This document shows, one piece after another, positions 26,531-54,837 of a DNA stretch of 64,000 nt. The stretch lies in IMG/VR virus record IMGVR_UViG_3300021977_000001. One strand, written 5' to 3'. Position 1 is the first letter of the stretch. Each line of letters starts with the position of its first letter. A program made the position numbers and the translations under genes. The notes below the pieces were generated by a model that saw only the letters and a list, made by a program, of their open reading frames with translations, did not search any database and was not told the DNA's origin. This DNA is from a virus.

Positions 26531-27349
26531 TTATTTAGTTTTGAAATTACCCATACCGTCATGACTTGCTGGGGTAAGGCTATCGAAAATGGTAGCTTCA
26601 ACGACGGTATCATCATCTACATGGTAAAACTCTTTAAACTGTCGAGATTTAACCACCTCACCATCTCTAACAGTAAGACGTACTCTGGCTGACGCGCTGA
26701 GTTGAATTAACGTCCCTGGACGAGCTAGACTGATTTCTATCATCCTTTCTTTAATATCAACCACGCCACTGTCTACGCCAATTTCTTCAATAGACCACGC
26801 ACTGCCTGCTTCACTTATAAACCAGTACGGATATTTATAGGACGTATTTTCACTTGACTCAGATTCTGTAGTGTCGTCTACTTTTATCTCATCGTTTACC
26901 TTTACCGTTACTTGATCTTTACCCATGCGCTCTTTAAGCGCCACCATGCGTCTGGTAGAAGACAAGTCTTTAGATTGTACTAGTTGTTTTAGATTCATAG
27001 CCACGTCCACTAGCGAGTTAAGTATACCCATGTAGTCTTTCAATAGATCTACACCATATGCCATAAGCTCAGAAAAGACCACATCGTCAATCGATATAGA
27101 TAGCGTAACTTCAACATCGTCTTTAACACGTAACATGTAAGCAATGTTGCTAAGGCTGTTAGCTACCTTTACGTCGACTGTGATACTCTCTTTAAGCATC
27201 TCTATAAGTAAATCGCCTTTCACTTTAGCGTGTTCTTCTGTATTGACTTTAGCTACTAAGGGTTTAAGTAACTCGATGGCCTGTGTTGCGTTTTCACGAT
27301 AAGCAGCTACTTCAACACGTGACAGGGTGAAGGTTTGTGTAATTTGCAT
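26531..27349 (-). CDS. Hypothetical protein, probably early-expressed
   Basis: 272 aa; AAGG RBS; TATATTAC promoter upstream. Confidence 0.75.
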   Translation of the reverse strand: MQITQTFTLSRVEVAAYRENATQAIELLKPLVAKVNTEEHAKVKGDLLIEMLKESITVDVKVANSLSNIAYMLRVKDDVEVTLSISIDDVVFSELMAYGVDLLKDYMGILNSLVDVAMNLKQLVQSKDLSSTRRMVALKERMGKDQVTVKVNDEIKVDDTTESESSENTSYKYPYWFISEAGSAWSIEEIGVDSGVVDIKERMIEISLARPGTLIQLSASARVRLTVRDGEVVKSRQFKEFYHVDDDTVVEATIFDSLTPASHDGMGNFKTK

Positions 27350-27405: not shown

Positions 27406-27413
27406 GTAATATA
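27406..27413 (-). promoter_or_regulatory. phiKZ-type early promoter (TATATTAC)
   Basis: Exact match to the phiKZ early consensus; intergenic, just after a terminator. Confidence 0.65.
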
Positions 27414-27479: not shown

Positions 27480-28097
27480 CTATAGCTTGCTGCCGGTAAT
27501 ACCTGTCTGACCCTGATACTTACCCCCTCTATCACCATAGGTAACGTTAGGGCGTTGTTTAGAGGCCTTAAACTCTATCTGTGCAATACCTACTCCAGCA
27601 TAGATCCGCATCGGTAGATTAGTGCAGTTAGTGATCTCTACTACTAAGTGACCTTCCCAACCCGCTTCCAGAGGCGTGATCAGGCTAAACATCCCTAACC
27701 TGGCCCAAGTGCTTTTATTAGAACACGTGGCCATTACGTTGTCTGGTATATGGAAGTATTCTACTGTACGCGATAGTAGCAATCCACCAGGCGGTAGGAT
27801 GACGCTATCGGCCTTTACCTCTTCAACAAACTCACGTTCATCAAAGTTCATGATATCAATGATACGTCCGTCGTTAGGTTTACTAAAGAGTTTAAACTCA
27901 GGCGCTAAACGGATATCGTACCCAAAACTACTAAGTCCATAGCTAGGTATGCGTTGGCCTTTATCGTTAGTATTAATGCTTTTACTAATAAAGGGTTCAA
28001 TCATGGGTTGTTGATGATTGTTAATCATTACGCCATCTAGATTAATTTGACATAAGTCGGTACATAACGCTTCTATTGCAAAGTCAGGTATTAACAT
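27480..28097 (-). CDS. dcd: dCTP deaminase
   Basis: SYGLSSFGYDIRL, KSTWARLG, TPLEAGWEGHLVVEI and Y.DR.GKYQGQTGIT motifs. Confidence 0.95.
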   Translation of the reverse strand: MLIPDFAIEALCTDLCQINLDGVMINNHQQPMIEPFISKSINTNDKGQRIPSYGLSSFGYDIRLAPEFKLFSKPNDGRIIDIMNFDEREFVEEVKADSVILPPGGLLLSRTVEYFHIPDNVMATCSNKSTWARLGMFSLITPLEAGWEGHLVVEITNCTNLPMRIYAGVGIAQIEFKASKQRPNVTYGDRGGKYQGQTGITGSKL

Positions 28098-28846: not shown

Positions 28847-29725
28847 CTACGACGCCATCTCAGCTGAGATAGGCGCGTGGTGATCATAACCAAAGACTTC
28901 AAAATCTTTATCGGTCATGTGATTAACCACATAATCCCAATCCGTTATACGATCACTTAACACGATTGTGGGTGGGTCATATGGATCGCGACTTAGTTGT
29001 TCAGTTACCTGCTCGAAATGATTATCGTAGATGTGGAAGTTATTATGGTCGTGTTTAACCCAACCTGGTTTATGACCAGTTATCTTAGCCATAACGGCTA
29101 AAAATACATAACACTGCATCATGTTCCAATTCATACCCAAAAATCCATCTGTGGATCTTTGTGTGGATGTCATATGGAGCGTATCACCTAACAATGTAAA
29201 AGTATGGCTATACATGCATGGTCTTAATGCCCCTAGTTCAAATAGACCTGGGTTCCAAAAGGTAACAATCTCACCACGATCATCGATACCAGCTTTAAGG
29301 TTAGTATAGACCTTTTTAAATAGATCCATCGTGTAACCGTCATGGGTTGGCCAGTTCTTAGCAACACCACCATACACCACACCAATATCATCTGTACCTT
29401 TACGGTGCGGATTATCTAACCACGCACGTGTTTCGTTAGCGTTAATGTCCCAGCTATCTGTCCCTAGGTCTCTAAACTGCGCCGCGCTATTAAACCCACG
29501 GAAATAACCACAGAGTTCTCTTATAGCTTTACGCCAATAGCTTTTACGCGTGGTCACTAGTGGAAACTCACCACCCCCTACATTGTAATATAGCACAGCG
29601 CCTGTTACCGTACGACAAACCTTACCGGTGCGGTCATTATGTATATCATAACCATGTTTCATGGTGTGTCTTAGTAGATCTAGATACTGTACTTCTGCAG
29701 TAGGTAGATGCTTTGGTATAATCAT
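28847..29725 (-). CDS. thyA: Thymidylate synthase (ThyA type)
   Basis: RTG, FPLVTTRK, ALRPCM (catalytic Cys), QRS.D.FLG..WN and HIY..H motifs; uninterrupted. Confidence 0.97.
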   Translation of the reverse strand: MIIPKHLPTAEVQYLDLLRHTMKHGYDIHNDRTGKVCRTVTGAVLYYNVGGGEFPLVTTRKSYWRKAIRELCGYFRGFNSAAQFRDLGTDSWDINANETRAWLDNPHRKGTDDIGVVYGGVAKNWPTHDGYTMDLFKKVYTNLKAGIDDRGEIVTFWNPGLFELGALRPCMYSHTFTLLGDTLHMTSTQRSTDGFLGMNWNMMQCYVFLAVMAKITGHKPGWVKHDHNNFHIYDNHFEQVTEQLSRDPYDPPTIVLSDRITDWDYVVNHMTDKDFEVFGYDHHAPISAEMAS

Positions 29726-30213
29726 TACATGTCTCCCATATCGTTAAAATAGTCACGTAGCTCCATCAACAACTTGCCTAAATGGTTTTCTCCTTTCCCA
29801 TCTCGATTAGATACACCCCAATACTTATCTCCATGCCAGTTACCTTCAACCAATGCCGCGTTACCCGTTGCTATTAACTTACGTTTAAGGTCTAAGTTGA
29901 GGTTAAATTTAAGCAGCAATATTTCCCACATCAGCGGTAGTTTAATAGCGTCCCAATCATCTCGCAGCTTAAGCTTCCTACCATGTATTTTAGCCTGGCC
30001 TGGATAAGGTAGGGTGGTGATAAAGGCCCGTTCTTTTACATCAGTGGTTTTAGCCGCCACGTAGGCGTGCTCGGCAGTGCTAAAGCTATACGTCTGAAGC
30101 TGTTTGCCTGGAAATACCGCAGTATAAGGAATAGGGTTAGTTAGTGGATAGAAGTTACTTAAAAACGCATAGTCGTCTTTAAATCTATCTATTCTATTCT
30201 CCTGAAATAACAT
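29725..30213 (-). CDS. NADAR (YbiA-like) domain protein
   Basis: FLSNFY, TAEHAYVAAK, RDDWD..K..LM..IL..KF, L..TG...LVE....DKYWG and GEN.LGKLLMELR; TAATG-coupled to thyA. Confidence 0.92.
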   Translation of the reverse strand: MLFQENRIDRFKDDYAFLSNFYPLTNPIPYTAVFPGKQLQTYSFSTAEHAYVAAKTTDVKERAFITTLPYPGQAKIHGRKLKLRDDWDAIKLPLMWEILLLKFNLNLDLKRKLIATGNAALVEGNWHGDKYWGVSNRDGKGENHLGKLLMELRDYFNDMGDM

Positions 30214-30932: not shown

Positions 30933-31706
30933 TTATTCGCAAACGCCTACGTAATGGTTACCACTGCCCTGCTTATCACAGATACGCTGGTTACGTAAAC
31001 GTTCATCATCTCCAATAGGATCTTTTAAATCCCAGTAGTATAGATGCATAAGTTCGTCGTTGGTAATATCTATACCTAGAGGAACGGCGTATGCGTCTAG
31101 CATGTATAAATAGATACGCGCTACGTCACCGCGTTTAATATCACGTATCTCTACAGCCTCTGAGGTAACCTCTACGTCGCATCTTCCAAAGTCCCTCGCC
31201 TCACCTATGATGTTAGCAAAGGGTTTATCAGAACGTAGATTGTTAAGCTCACCTATAGCAGGTACAACGTTAACAAGATCATTCTGCGCACGCTCGTAGA
31301 CCAGATTCGTTTTCTCACAGCACGCACGTGATGACATCAGGTCACCATCCGACTCGTAGCACTCTGATATCTCTTCACGACCCTCACCCCAACACTGTAG
31401 CGCTCCACCTATCTTTGAAGCAGGCATGACGTGTTCGCCTTCTACGCGATTAGCACGTGTAGACGTTGCACTTATAGGCTGATAGTCGCAGTCGGAATAA
31501 TCTACTTGCTTATCTTCTGTAAACCCACATCCACAGTAAAACGTCTGGTTTAACGGACTAGCATGTACATCTTCAATCATCCAGCGGGTTGTAGTTGAAA
31601 ATGACTTAGGAATGTCTTTAGCATAGCCGGTACTTGCAGACATGATAATACCAATAGCAATAACTGCTAGTAGTATGGTGAATAGTCCTACTGATTTTTG
31701 TTTCAT
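30933..31706 (-). CDS. endA: Endonuclease I (EndA/Vvn/Dns family) with a signal peptide
   Basis: TFYCGC, RVEGEHVMPAS (catalytic His), DLVN.VPAIGELN..RSD, DFGRCD and RGDVARIYLYM. Start set at MKQKSVGLFTILLAVIAIGII... (ATG 31706, AAGGA RBS). Confidence 0.9.
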   Translation of the reverse strand: MKQKSVGLFTILLAVIAIGIIMSASTGYAKDIPKSFSTTTRWMIEDVHASPLNQTFYCGCGFTEDKQVDYSDCDYQPISATSTRANRVEGEHVMPASKIGGALQCWGEGREEISECYESDGDLMSSRACCEKTNLVYERAQNDLVNVVPAIGELNNLRSDKPFANIIGEARDFGRCDVEVTSEAVEIRDIKRGDVARIYLYMLDAYAVPLGIDITNDELMHLYYWDLKDPIGDDERLRNQRICDKQGSGNHYVGVCE

Positions 31707-32320
31707 TTTATTATATCCTTTAAAAGGGGTGAGCGTTTTAATAGTTCTTTGTATAATGCAGCAAACTTCGTTGCACGTTCCGCACAAGCCTTCAGTAAAG
31801 CGGACGATGGCTTACCTGTACAGACGTGTCGTTCGAGTATGAGGATGTTACCCAGTATTAATATATGGCGCAAATACCAATCTAATACCCTATCCTGCAG
31901 CATCACGTTGAAGTTAATAACTGACTTCCTATTCCTAGCAAAGATACCACGACCTATTTTAACGGTGGGGATGCTATCTGGTAGCATTACAATCTCATTA
32001 ACAAGATCTTGGTATATGGCATTTTGCATAGCCGTGTATGGCAGGTGTTTAACTACAGCCATAGTTACACGCGCGGCAGGTTCAGTTAGACCCAACGCGT
32101 TGATCTCAGCAGTATTAAAAACGTGTGTTAGTGTAACCGATGAGGTGTTGCGGAATTGGAAGTTTTCTAGTTGTCTGAGCGATGCTTCGTAAACGTTGTT
32201 GAATCCCTGGATGAAATTACTTGCTCGTCTGTCCAAAGACGGATCAAGAAACTGCTTTAAAAACATCCGGGCTTTGTTGGCTTCCTGCCTTACAGTTATT
32301 AAATTGGCATTGTTGCTCAT
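31703..32320 (-). CDS. Hypothetical protein
   Basis: 205 aa; 4-nt overlap with endA; TAGG RBS. Confidence 0.7.
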   Translation of the reverse strand: MSNNANLITVRQEANKARMFLKQFLDPSLDRRASNFIQGFNNVYEASLRQLENFQFRNTSSVTLTHVFNTAEINALGLTEPAARVTMAVVKHLPYTAMQNAIYQDLVNEIVMLPDSIPTVKIGRGIFARNRKSVINFNVMLQDRVLDWYLRHILILGNILILERHVCTGKPSSALLKACAERATKFAALYKELLKRSPLLKDIIK

Positions 32321-33468: not shown

Positions 33469-34041
33469 TTAGGTACTACTTGGTTTTTTAGTAACTGTAA
33501 AATCTATCCTATCTGACATCGCCTTCATGTCTTTAAATGGACTAGTGGGTTGAGGAAAGATATCAAAGTTATCTTCTACGGTGTGATGAAGTTTATTTAA
33601 CACAACCCCAAACGTCTTTTCATTAATTGTAACAATTAACGATATAAAGAACGCTACTGACGATAATAAATACACACCACCTGTAGAATTTATAGAAACA
33701 ACACAGTGACCATTGACGGCAGCAGTACGATAAAGCCGATTAAATAATCTAATAAGCTTTGATGTAAAAAACATCCGTCCCAACTTATAGTCTATCTCAT
33801 CATGCTGTACAAGTAGGCTTTCTATAAATACGGTTTTAGAGGTAGAGTTTTCTAACTCTTCAATTAATTCAACATATTCATCTATGTTCCTTAACGGTTC
33901 ACGTATGGTCATGTCAAATGCATTTAATTCACTTTCTAACTTTTCAGTATGTGAAGGTGTCGATATCGCCTCAACAATAACACCCTTTAGCAGGCATAGT
34001 TTTTTAATATCTTCTTTCATGTGTAAATCCTTAGAGGGCAT
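33469..34041 (-). CDS. Hypothetical protein (AT-rich gene)
   Basis: 190-aa ORF; the real start may be the second Met. Confidence 0.6.
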   Translation of the reverse strand: MPSKDLHMKEDIKKLCLLKGVIVEAISTPSHTEKLESELNAFDMTIREPLRNIDEYVELIEELENSTSKTVFIESLLVQHDEIDYKLGRMFFTSKLIRLFNRLYRTAAVNGHCVVSINSTGGVYLLSSVAFFISLIVTINEKTFGVVLNKLHHTVEDNFDIFPQPTSPFKDMKAMSDRIDFTVTKKPSST

Positions 34042-34068
34042 AAAGCGAGAACCCGAAGGTTCTCTGCT
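34036..34068 (-). terminator. Hairpin followed by TTTATGCC
   Basis: GAGAACC-cgaa-GGTTCTC on the + strand (UUCG loop on -), right after the 49-aa ORF stop. Confidence 0.75.
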
Positions 34069-34072
34069 CTAT

Positions 34073-34222
34073 TTATATCTTACAGGCCCCGCCTTCACAG
34101 TCGTCAACATCACCTTCCGTTAAAGCTTTTGCTTCTTCGTTCTGCTCTGCCATACGCTCTGCGTTAGCGCGTTCTAGGGCCTCTTCATCGATGTTTAAAT
34201 CGAAATCATCAAAATCACTCAC
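34073..34222 (-). CDS. 49-aa acidic peptide ending in a class Ia RNR-alpha-like redox tail (DDCEGGACKI)
   Basis: Hand translation: GTG-SDFDDFDLNIDEEALERANAERMAEQNEEAKALTEGDVDDCEGGACKI-TAA. AAAGGAG RBS 7 nt upstream, TATATTAC promoter before it and a terminator after it. Confidence 0.85.
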   Translation of the reverse strand: MSDFDDFDLNIDEEALERANAERMAEQNEEAKALTEGDVDDCEGGACKI

Positions 34223-34238
34223 GTGATTGCTCCTTTAT

Positions 34239-34246
34239 GTAATATA
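34239..34246 (-). promoter_or_regulatory. phiKZ-type early promoter (TATATTAC)
   Basis: Exact match directly upstream of the RBS of the 49-aa ORF. Confidence 0.7.
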
Positions 34247-52027: not shown

Positions 52028-53941
52028 ATGGCCATTAATCCAGATGAAATTGCAGGTATTGAGTGCATTCATGCTAACTATTTTGTTAATCAGAACACTA
52101 AAAAAGATGACCTTGTATTGGTTAAAGAACGTGTGCATTTAAAAGACGGTTCTACTGTATCACGTATGGTGCCTAAGATTAATGTAAAGAAATCATTTTA
52201 CATTACACGTGAAGGCCATCAGAACCATCACGAGAAAAAAGAATGGGAAGATAGAAACAAAGTACAGCGTTATCAGTCTACTCAGGTGCTGTTAGCTGAC
52301 AACGTAGCCCGTGCCTTAGGGCAGACGCCTGGGTTTATGCGTTTAGGTATGCTAAACCGTAATCCTTACGTATACGGTACCGACATCATGCCTACGGTGT
52401 TAGTTAAACACAAATACATAAAAGACTATCCAGACTATAACGATGCGCGTTATGATGCAGATAATGCGGTACTGGATTTAGAGACTAATACCGTTTTTGA
52501 ACACCTACATCCAGACGACCAGGCGATGTGTCGTAAGTTTGACGATAAGATAGGCGATGTCCAGCGACGCATGGACTTCATGCGTCTACAACAGGAAGAG
52601 GCCAATCAGAAACCTGACGGTAAGAAAGCGGCTAAACGCATTGCAGAACAGCTAAAGCTTGCAAGGGAAGAAGTAGTACAGCTACAGGCGGAACGTAAAC
52701 CGTACGAGCAACCTATTATCTCTGGTTCGTTAACCATGAAAGATAAAGTCTTTATTGCTGTAACTAAACGTTTCGCACAGCGTATACAGGGCAAGGCGGT
52801 ACCGGTCGTTGAGGGGCTATTTGATCTTTATCTGAGCAAATATAAAGAAGAAAGAAACATTACTTTAGAGGTGGAGATAGTTGAAAACGACTTTGAAGTA
52901 ACTCGCGCTTTACTTCAACGCGCTCATGCGTGGAGACCAGATTTCATTCTAATTTGGAATATGAACTTTGATATTCCAAAGATGATAGAGTCATGCAAGC
53001 GCCATAATGAAGATCCTGCTTACGTATTTAGCGACCCTAAAATACCGCCTGAGTATAAGTATTTTAAATATAAAGAAGGGCAATTACAGAAGACTAAGGC
53101 AGATGGCAAAACGTACTCCCAACACGTTGCCGACCTATGGCATACGGTCATAGCGCCTGCTAGCTTCTACTTTATTGACTCTATGTGTTTGTATAAGAAA
53201 CTACGTGTAACGGAAGCACAGCAACCATCCTATAGCTTAGATGCTATTTTAGGTAGGCACTTAAATCTATCTAAATTAAAGTTTGAGGAAGCTGACGCTT
53301 ATAAAGGGTTAGAATGGCATCAGTTCATGCAGACTAACTACCCTGCTGAATACCTTATCTATAACGCTTTTGACTGCATAGCGGTTGAACTATTAGATGA
53401 AGATCAGACAGACATTAAGAAGATGCGTATCTTGTTAGGTCACTCAGACCTTATCAAGTTCCCCTCTACACCAAGACGTCTTGCAGATGACTTACATTTC
53501 GTCTGCGAGGAAGAAGAAGGTAAGGTGATGGGGTCGACTAGTGATCAGATGGTCGCAGATGAAGATGAATTGCTTCCTTCTCTACAGGGGTGGATTTGTA
53601 CCCTACCTAGCCATCTAATCCACAAGCGTGGTTTAAATCTATTAGAAGAAGATCCTAATGTAGAAACCGGTCTATCGGTAGCGGTGAGCGATCTAGACGT
53701 TGCGGCGGGTTATCCAAACATCGGTATTATCACTAACGCCTCTAGAGAGACAACAATTCTTGAATTCTGCCGTATACAGAATAAGAGTGATGATGTCTAC
53801 AGACGCGCTGCGTTAAACCTCACAGCAGCACAGACCAATGCGGTAGAAGTGTGTAGGGATATTCTCTCCATGCCGGATATGAACACGTTGTTAAAGGAGT
53901 TTACTAAAGAACACAACATCGATCATCCTGTAAACAGTTAA
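52028..53941 (+). CDS. Split family-B DNA polymerase, exonuclease plus motif-A part (phiKZ gp82-like)
   Basis: ExoI LDLET, ExoII IWNMNFDIP, ExoIII YNAFDC and PolB motif A DLDVAAGYPN. Motifs B and C are absent, as known for the split polymerase of these phages. Confidence 0.85.
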   Translation: MAINPDEIAGIECIHANYFVNQNTKKDDLVLVKERVHLKDGSTVSRMVPKINVKKSFYITREGHQNHHEKKEWEDRNKVQRYQSTQVLLADNVARALGQTPGFMRLGMLNRNPYVYGTDIMPTVLVKHKYIKDYPDYNDARYDADNAVLDLETNTVFEHLHPDDQAMCRKFDDKIGDVQRRMDFMRLQQEEANQKPDGKKAAKRIAEQLKLAREEVVQLQAERKPYEQPIISGSLTMKDKVFIAVTKRFAQRIQGKAVPVVEGLFDLYLSKYKEERNITLEVEIVENDFEVTRALLQRAHAWRPDFILIWNMNFDIPKMIESCKRHNEDPAYVFSDPKIPPEYKYFKYKEGQLQKTKADGKTYSQHVADLWHTVIAPASFYFIDSMCLYKKLRVTEAQQPSYSLDAILGRHLNLSKLKFEEADAYKGLEWHQFMQTNYPAEYLIYNAFDCIAVELLDEDQTDIKKMRILLGHSDLIKFPSTPRRLADDLHFVCEEEEGKVMGSTSDQMVADEDELLPSLQGWICTLPSHLIHKRGLNLLEEDPNVETGLSVAVSDLDVAAGYPNIGIITNASRETTILEFCRIQNKSDDVYRRAALNLTAAQTNAVEVCRDILSMPDMNTLLKEFTKEHNIDHPVNS

Positions 53942-54829: not shown

Positions 54830-54837
54830 GTAATATA
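54830..54837 (-). promoter_or_regulatory. phiKZ-type early promoter (TATATTAC)
   Basis: Exact match, about 30 nt after a terminator. Confidence 0.65.

Follow-up and report, generated by a model that had tools for sequence, protein, structure and literature searches.

Why would a phage without a ribonucleotide reductase (RNR) carry a gene whose product ends like one? In this study, the question was raised by a small open reading frame (ORF) in a 64,000-nucleotide stretch of the IMG/VR virus record IMGVR_UViG_3300021977_000001, which as a whole is called the window below. Located at 34073..34222 (minus strand), the ORF runs from a GTG start to a TAA stop and encodes an acidic product of 49 amino acids, MSDFDDFDLNIDEEALERANAERMAEQNEEAKALTEGDVDDCEGGACKI, in which 17 Asp/Glu residues stand against four Lys/Arg residues (net charge about -13) and whose C-terminus is DVDDCEGGACKI. 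A first-pass annotation of this DNA had described a very acidic 49-aa ORF that would be a stand-alone RNR redox tail, and an ORF of precisely this kind was found. Judging by its similarity to known RNR ends, the peptide is a free-standing copy of the redox tail of RNR alpha without the catalytic domain. Three further observations went beyond that annotation: the N-terminus of the peptide is, by the same kind of comparison, a copy of the tail of the other RNR subunit, NrdB; copies of the gene are present on bacterial chromosomes; and the family extends well beyond the phiKZ-like phages.

Two RNR tails in one peptide

The C-terminal copy comprises residues 38-49 (DVDDCEGGACKI; 34076..34111, minus strand), with a CX4C pair at the extreme C-terminus as in the class Ia and class II RNRs. 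The last eight residues of the peptide are identical to the NrdA ends of many gammaproteobacteria (...CEGGACKI), while the last ten are 80% identical to the end of the E. coli NrdA, whose C-terminus (...QDDGCESGACKI) closes with DDGCESGACKI; the spacing and the terminal position of the cysteines, which the first-pass annotation had likened to those of the E. coli enzyme, do match. The class II RNR of L. leichmannii has a similar C-terminus, DCEGGACPI, and a tblastn search of the GenBank phages also hit cluster A mycobacteriophages, where the matches are at the ends of genuine RNRs. The feature by which an RNR alpha tail is recognised, i.e., an acidic flexible stretch that closes with a cysteine pair at the extreme C-terminus, was thus found in the peptide. 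The rest of the enzyme was not: the peptide had no match in Pfam and none to PF02867, the catalytic ten-stranded barrel domain, and when the E. coli NrdA and a phage RNR were compared with the window using tblastn, only the last 8-10 residues matched and no RNR was detected. The proposal that no catalytic domain is attached was therefore correct, and the tail module is free-standing in the whole family. The terminal alpha-tail copy is invariant across this family, and conservation of the terminal cysteine pair among the homologues, on which the earlier interpretation depended, was observed: both cysteines are kept even where the spacing becomes CX2C (...DCEGCKI and ...CDGCTI), an argument that the redox pair itself, and not the shape of the tail alone, is under selection.

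The N-terminal copy, DFDDFDL (residues 3-9; 34196..34216, minus strand), was recognised by its identity to NrdB ends and by a position-specific scoring matrix (PSSM). It is identical to the last seven residues of the Litoribrevibacter NrdB, which ends in ...SADDFDDFDL (L111). The NrdB ends that were listed from 86 bacterial loci include ...DEFDDFDL, ...DFGDFDL (Pseudoalteromonas) and ...DDLSDFEL; the NrdB of Thalassolituus ends in ...DTADFGDFDL and that of E. coli in ...DDLSNFQL. With a PSSM that was derived from the C-terminal heptapeptides of 30 distinct NrdB ends, DFDDFDL was the best site in the peptide (score 21.6 with a general background; p<=0.0005 against shuffles that preserve its acidic, Phe/Leu-rich composition). 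When the same matrix was run over 395,919 positions in 1,218 long ORFs from all of the loci and the window, each of the 67 positions that scored 18.6 or more was an NrdB C-terminus, so that no match outside NrdB came within 3 bits of the score of DFDDFDL; the best score among the 78 long ORFs of the window was 8.4. The peptide contains no tyrosine and lacks the radical-transfer segment (SYLVGQID...) that precedes the motif in NrdB.

Similar N-terminal motifs were seen in some relatives. The peptides of the Klebsiella jumbo phages carry the beta-tail-like sequences DFDSFTL and DFGAFEL, the Moraxella peptide has DLDDLNL where its own NrdB ends in ...DLDDFEL, and the peptide of the Chaseviridae phage SA91KD starts with DFDALDNLDF while the NrdB of this phage ends in NALGGFEL. 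A host-matched co-variation of the tails, which was judged by eye only in the phages of Klebsiella, Erwinia and E. coli, is suggestive. The two motifs are connected by an acidic linker of about 28 residues (residues 10-37; 34112..34195, minus strand; read from the sequence), which is likely to be helical or flexible; across the family, the linker ranges from about 18 to 35 residues. A beta-tail copy that is joined to an alpha-tail copy points to NrdA, which binds both tails, as the target.

Conservation and distribution of the peptide family

The ORF is a real and conserved gene. Compared with its nearest relative (L001 from record G001; 97% identity over 1.6 kb), it has 11 synonymous and no non-synonymous differences, and the ratio of non-synonymous to synonymous change (pN/pS) was 0.06 against L014 and 0.16 against L013, which shows that the gene is under strong purifying selection. 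Metatranscriptome contigs from four runs in three studies span the ORF, and the two variants that they contain in the codons of the tail are both synonymous. These contigs document its presence in RNA libraries and are not proof of transcription; they carry no information on strand, ends or level, and a carry-over of DNA is possible.

Full-length homologues that are encoded by small ORFs were found in unrelated lineages of the GenBank phages using tblastn. Those of the Chaseviridae coliphages end in ...DNDCSSGACAI, those of the Klebsiella and Serratia jumbo phages in ...DDCEGGACKI and those of the Koutsourovirus podophages in the two CX2C forms that were given above; further homologues are present in Erwinia jumbo phages and in a Zobellviridae vibriophage. 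In IMG/VR, a scan for ...CEGGACKI followed by a stop codon retrieved 31 loci, of which two were RNRs (L027 and L034), 21 were acidic ORFs of 40-62 aa and eight were ORFs of 61-263 aa with the same C-terminal module behind an additional N-terminal sequence. The first-pass annotation had confined its proposed search of small ORFs to phiKZ-like genomes and asked whether the peptide goes with a truncated or absent phage nrdA tail; the 16 records of carrier phages that were analysed have no nrdA of their own, and the family proved to be far wider than the phiKZ-like phages.

A 14-member profile that was searched against 1.84 billion representatives returned 51 clusters at E<=0.001, all of them of 35-261 aa. 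None of these clusters was a full-length RNR, which indicates that the family is recognised by more than its eight terminal residues. Neither Pfam nor NCBIfam has a model for it. Relatives match phrog_14561, phrog_24014, phrog_38753 and phrog_10239 through the C-terminal motif, all of which are annotated as being of unknown function, whereas the window peptide matches none of these four and its only PHROG hit was phrog_25896 at an insignificant E = 0.25. A word-indexed protein search with the peptide found only four near-identical proteins, a sequence search of the PDB only the tail of the L. leichmannii RNR (E = 1.3), and a full-text search of the literature found no description of such a peptide. 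Taken at the level of sequence similarity, the family is large, widespread in phages and some bacteria, and assigned to no known family. One apparent member of the 90% cluster of the peptide, the 407-aa protein P0087, was rejected as an unrelated protein and a clustering artefact.

The tail module, i.e., the hydrophobic/acidic motif with DDCEGGACKI at the end, also occurs at the C-terminus of larger proteins. In the record of Klebsiella phage Pylas, it is fused to a domain of the N4-gp49/Sf6-gp66 family (130 aa; L036:1193-1585), with ADFSL placed only two residues ahead of the first cysteine. Other fusions are a 263-aa protein (L017:1052-1843 and L026:2429-3220), for which the AlphaFold2 model of the L017 copy had a mean pLDDT of 30, and a 123-aa protein (L029:5787-6158 and L033). 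Long forms were also seen in the Koutsourovirus phages KKP 3828 (L004:3845-4129) and phiKDA1 (L007:1354-1632), where a cysteine-rich stretch, CGADCTNRCSIGACP, with another C-x-x-G-A-C motif lies upstream of a C-terminal pair that is CX2C rather than CX4C. One of the two RNRs from the IMG/VR scan (L034:1811-4624), the 937-aa alpha subunit of a phage class Ia RNR with the C-terminus ...EDEGCEGGACKI, matches an intein splicing domain weakly and below the threshold; an intein would explain its extra length.

The same DNA pattern was used to scan bacteria, with one genome per species, and at least 120 loci were obtained. Among the matches listed, 90 were ORFs of more than 400 aa, which is consistent with full-length NrdA (71 of these were confirmed by their length and an NrdA-type N-terminus), 15 ran off the end of the locus and 15 were small. 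The small ORFs listed include a 23-residue fragment from Psychrosphaera, which is probably a broken NrdA end, and 12 of a Neisseria type (MNEQELDLDNLDNLLEDFDGVTVEGGVDSENDDGCEGGACKI), one of which is on a short contig that is labelled Terrabacter but looks like Neisseria sequence. In eleven of the 12 listed cases of the Neisseria type, iscU follows about 65-70 nt downstream of the gene, which is preceded by iscR-iscS wherever the locus is long enough to show it; the remaining one, a variant in a metagenome-assembled Neisseria genome (L074), is not at isc. In N. meningitidis, the 42-aa member between iscS and iscU is found at L070:5063-5191; others in this position are L021:3167-3292, L042, L080, L099 and L107. 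The cluster of the Neisseria peptide has 210 members on more than 1,000 contigs, which are named 'hypothetical' save for a single automatic label in UniRef, 'FxLD family lantipeptide', that NCBIfam does not support. Copies that are not at isc are present in Moraxella caprae, Thalassolituus maritimus and one further chromosome. The bacterial carriers keep an intact NrdAB, and in all four of the bacterial genomes that were checked, the tail of the class Ia NrdA is intact (...DDGCAGGACKI/L).

Several peculiarities of the bacterial loci are worth mentioning. The 'viral' contig IMGVR_UViG_2541047228_000006 (L021) holds the Neisseria iscR-iscS-peptide-iscU order, and at least that part of it is bacterial chromosome. 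In the 89-aa protein P0033, a tail peptide of the Neisseria type is fused to the N-terminal ~50 residues of IscU; this may be an artefact of gene calling or assembly or a real rearrangement. The Thalassolituus and Moraxella copies adjoin flavoprotein oxidoreductases, a CysJ-like diflavin reductase and a reductase of the Old-Yellow-Enzyme type (L108:100-1659 and L116:583-1716); this proximity may or may not be meaningful.

RNR genes in the carrier phages

Sixteen records of phages that carry the peptide were analysed for RNR genes: five complete GenBank genomes, eight IMG/VR genomes that are >=99% complete, one record with terminal repeats and two incomplete ones (G001, the nearest to the window, and G003). 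RNR alpha (PF02867) was absent in all 16 and NrdB in 15; thioredoxin and glutaredoxin were absent in all five of the records that were tested for them. The exception is Escherichia phage vB_EcoM_SA91KD (Chaseviridae; L175, record 52666-53538), which encodes an orphan nrdB without nrdA in addition to the tail peptide P0001. Its NrdB has the radical-transfer segment SYLVGQID and a host-like tail, ...DTNALGGFEL, within the end ...SYLVGQIDSEVDTNALGGFEL. Since this phage has its own NrdB and no NrdA, it would have to use active host NrdA. As far as gene content can tell, the carrier phages are dependent on the RNR alpha of the host.

Genomic setting and expression signals

The 478-aa protein that is encoded next to the peptide matches virion proteins of the phiKZ-like phages, and a head-tail joining protein is also encoded close by; by such matches, the window was assigned to a phiKZ-like jumbo phage. 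Its G+C content is 42.5%, and the DNA runs that contain the stretch come from marine and hydrothermal-vent metagenomes. A megablast search of the GenBank phages with 6 kb around the gene gave no match. Between 27480 and 31787, i.e., 2-6.5 kb downstream of the peptide gene and on the same strand, lies a nucleotide-metabolism cluster that consists of a dCTP-deaminase-like protein (27480-28097), thymidylate synthase (ThyA; 28847-29725), a NADAR domain protein (29725-30213) and Endonuclease I (30933-31787), all on the minus strand. The nearby dTTP pathway that the first-pass annotation had pointed out is thus represented by ThyA and the dCTP-deaminase-like gene at a distance of 4-6.5 kb, and their presence in the adjacent region suggests that the phage invests in the supply of deoxynucleoside triphosphates (dNTPs) downstream of RNR.

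The signals around the peptide gene had been described as a ribosome-binding site, a UUCG hairpin and an early promoter. The first two are present. A Shine-Dalgarno-like AAAGGAG (34230..34236, minus strand) is located 7 nt upstream of the GTG, and at the equivalent position the relative L014 has AAAAGGAG. A hairpin with a UUCG loop lies 3' of the stop codon (34040..34072, minus strand; core stem 34047-34064, GAGAACC-UUCG-GGUUCUC), and its extended fold has an energy of -19.3 kcal/mol (z = -4.25), which was equalled by none of 200 shuffled sequences. The picture is more mixed for the promoter. The element TATATTAC (34239..34246, minus strand), which we take to be the consensus of the phiKZ early promoters, was assigned as a candidate promoter core by a motif match, and three of its six copies in the window are immediately 5' of gene starts (27406-27413, 34239-34246 and 54830-54837, minus strand, ahead of the starts at 27349, 34222 and 54817) in the common context C(T/C)TATATTAC. 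All six copies are on the minus (coding) strand. However, six copies against 5.6 expected is the level of chance, and the remaining three (14333, 29585 and 38167) are inside ORFs. The element is thus a reasonable candidate for a promoter of the peptide gene. Only a weak U-run (GCUUUAUG) follows the hairpin, and the base-pairing of its 3' arm (34040-34046) extends over the AU of the start codon AUG of the following gene (33469-34041, with its ATG at 34041). A one-gene transcription unit is plausible, and the hairpin might influence the translation of the next gene in addition to termination.

Possible functions of the peptide

What the peptides do has to be judged from their two motifs and their genomic company. 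At the most general level, we consider it somewhat probable that they are an undescribed class of encoded peptides which join the beta docking tail to the alpha redox tail, regulate or service class Ia RNR in trans and are common to unrelated phages and some bacteria. For the peptide in the window, our preferred reading, which is put forward tentatively, is that of a two-part mimic of both class Ia RNR tails that acts in trans on host NrdA as an auxiliary redox arm. The beta tail sits in a surface groove of alpha that is some tens of angstroms from the active site, into which alpha inserts its own tail, the part that thioredoxin or glutaredoxin recharges. In the proposed mechanism, the N-terminal DFDDFDL would dock transiently in this groove, the acidic linker of about 28 residues would span the distance to the active site, and the C-terminal DDCEGGACKI would exchange its dithiol/disulfide with the active-site cysteines of NrdA, after which host thioredoxin or glutaredoxin would recharge the peptide. 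The net effect might be a detachable auxiliary arm with which a phage that encodes no RNR, yet has genomes of ~200 kb to make, raises or secures the turnover of the host enzyme. The linkers of 18-35 residues in the family are long enough to bridge the groove and the active site, and the retention of the gene in the housekeeping isc operon of Neisseria fits a non-toxic role. Other points in favour of a helper are the cysteine pair that survives changes of spacing, the lack of RNR alpha in all 16 carrier phage records, the NrdB that SA91KD contributes to host alpha, and the ThyA and dCTP-deaminase-like genes of the phage in the window. The binding to NrdA, the redox exchange and the direction of the effect are all points that we infer from sequence.

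Several points weigh against the auxiliary arm. Free C-terminal peptides of NrdB are classical competitive inhibitors of class I RNR, and the beta-tail copy can be read at least as easily as an inhibitor. The own tail of NrdA is tethered and already at a high local concentration, so that it is not obvious what a free arm would add. The match to the beta tail reached p<0.01 in only seven of 52 family representatives and p<0.05 in 12; it was not significant in the peptide of the Neisseria type, and this and the other representatives have a looser repeat of acidic and hydrophobic residues. Moreover, DFDDFDL is N-terminal with more residues after it, while the NrdB motif needs a free C-terminus in at least some species. 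A complex prediction with an alignment of NrdA (first row Litoribrevibacter) and one of the peptide gave a score of 0.12 and a mark of 0.32 without controls, and it speaks neither for nor against binding.

The strongest competitor is a bivalent inhibitor of host class Ia RNR, which would displace NrdB from NrdA by means of its beta-tail copy and use its alpha-tail copy to occupy or trap the entrance of the active site. We regard such an inhibitor as possible but rather unlikely; its effect would be to stop dNTP synthesis and replication in the host or to damp surges of dNTPs, which are sensed by some defence systems. In sequence, the N-terminal motif is the NrdB tail without the upstream radical-transfer tyrosine segment, and peptides of this type inhibit RNR; the candidate early promoter, together with the early-region position of the gene in other phages, would fit a takeover of the host, and small early phage proteins often shut off host functions. 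A possible motive is offered by the Clover and DRT9 defence systems, which are reportedly triggered by RNR-driven rises in dNTPs (PMC12265719, PMC13434031). However, because all 16 carrier phages are without RNR alpha, blocking the host enzyme would starve them unless the recycling of host DNA suffices, and one carrier lineage, that of SA91KD, even supplies its own NrdB to host NrdA. The maintenance of the gene in a housekeeping operon by bacteria and the invariance of both cysteines, even when their spacing changes, also argue against an inhibitor, and the auxiliary redox arm is preferred over it. A simpler use of the C-terminus would be a decoy or substrate of thioredoxin and glutaredoxin, with the free tail diverting or buffering the host reductants without binding to NrdA. 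The tail does match the NrdA sequence that is recognised by thioredoxin and glutaredoxin 1, and the five carriers that were tested encode neither reductant, but such a role is improbable: it leaves unexplained both the NrdB-tail copy at the N-terminus and the exact keeping of the terminal K-I and the acidic run as in RNR, and a dithiol substrate turns over rather than sequesters.

The isc loci of Neisseria suggest another function, namely that of a dithiol- or metal-binding helper of Fe-S assembly by IscS/IscU that was borrowed by phages in order to manipulate the Fe-S biogenesis of the host. Besides the gene order at these loci, the fusion of an N-terminal IscU fragment to the peptide in P0033 could be cited in its favour, as could the IscU-like domain that has been reported before the terminal cysteine pair in the long C-termini of class II RNRs (bioRxiv 10.1101/2022.04.23.489257). 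We nevertheless give this explanation little weight; the copies in Moraxella, Thalassolituus and one further chromosome are elsewhere, both ends of the window peptide match RNR tails specifically, and the phage contexts show no Fe-S genes. The automatic lantipeptide label in UniRef would imply the precursor of a ribosomally made modified peptide (e.g., a lanthipeptide with an FxLD-type leader) whose cysteines serve for cross-links, and the F-x-L-D leader-like pattern followed by a cysteine-bearing C-terminal core is superficially similar. This is very improbable considering that six family members did not match the NCBIfam precursor model at E<=1, that many members have no Ser/Thr near the cysteines and that the exact identity to both RNR tails would be left unexplained; the carriers are small phage genomes, and in six phage records the genes next to the peptide, as annotated or scanned, include no modifying enzyme, although no dedicated search was made. 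Finally, the first-pass annotation had considered a tail that serves in trans a phage RNR without one; such a pair within one genome would resemble the split NrdJa/NrdJb. Despite the precedent of split class II RNRs in the literature, we rejected this option and see next to no chance for it, because neither the window, its nearest record nor the 15 other carrier phages contain an RNR alpha and because the bacterial carriers have an NrdA with an intact tail.

Significance and comparison with known systems

DNA precursors are made de novo by RNR alone, which is also a drug target, and no handles on the enzyme have been studied better than its two flexible tails, the docking tail of beta and the redox arm of alpha. 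If confirmed, a natural peptide that consists of copies of both tails, and that is conserved in RNR-less phages as well as in bacteria with an RNR, would represent a new type of external control of the enzyme. It would be the first natural peptide known to act in trans on a bacterial RNR, and a route by which phages that have no RNR control the dNTP synthesis of their hosts. A booster would explain how RNR-less jumbo phages meet their demand for dNTPs, and it would show that re-reduction limits RNR in vivo. An inhibitor, on the other hand, would give bacteria or phages their first counterpart of the Sml1-type regulators and provide a template for peptide inhibitors. In either case, the copy in the isc operon of Neisseria would link Fe-S and iron status to DNA-precursor synthesis if the proposed action on RNR is true.

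Among the known systems, Sml1, Spd1 and Hug1 are likewise small and probably disordered proteins that are thought to act on RNR through tail-related interactions; Sml1 competes with the C-terminal tail of R1. They are eukaryotic and were established as inhibitors by experiment, and no sequence relation between them and the phage peptide was seen in the Pfam, PDB and NCBIfam searches. In the split class II RNR NrdJa/NrdJb, the redox-active cysteine pair is also on a separate polypeptide. NrdJb, however, is larger, has IscU-like and zinc-finger domains and is encoded beside a catalytic subunit without the cysteines, while the phage peptide has two cysteines only. Because it has neither an IscU-like or zinc-finger domain nor a tail-less partner RNR in its genome, it is not a split tail of the NrdJb type. 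The closest parallels are the two tails themselves. With the tail of the E. coli NrdA (Cys754/Cys759), the peptide shares the acidic flexible stretch that ends in C-x4-C-K-I at the extreme C-terminus, but it is a separate product of 49 aa from an RNR-less genome, with a second motif at its N-terminus, and the lack of a barrel means that it is not an RNR subunit. With the NrdB tails (...DTDDLSNFQL in E. coli, ...DDFDDFDL in marine gammaproteobacteria), it has in common the heptapeptide DFDDFDL of the marine form, and the radical-transfer tyrosine is missing as it is in the synthetic or viral NrdB-derived peptides that inhibit RNR. In contrast to the NrdB tail, the phage motif is N-terminal, is followed by 40 more residues, has no free carboxylate and is encoded in fusion with a copy of the alpha tail.

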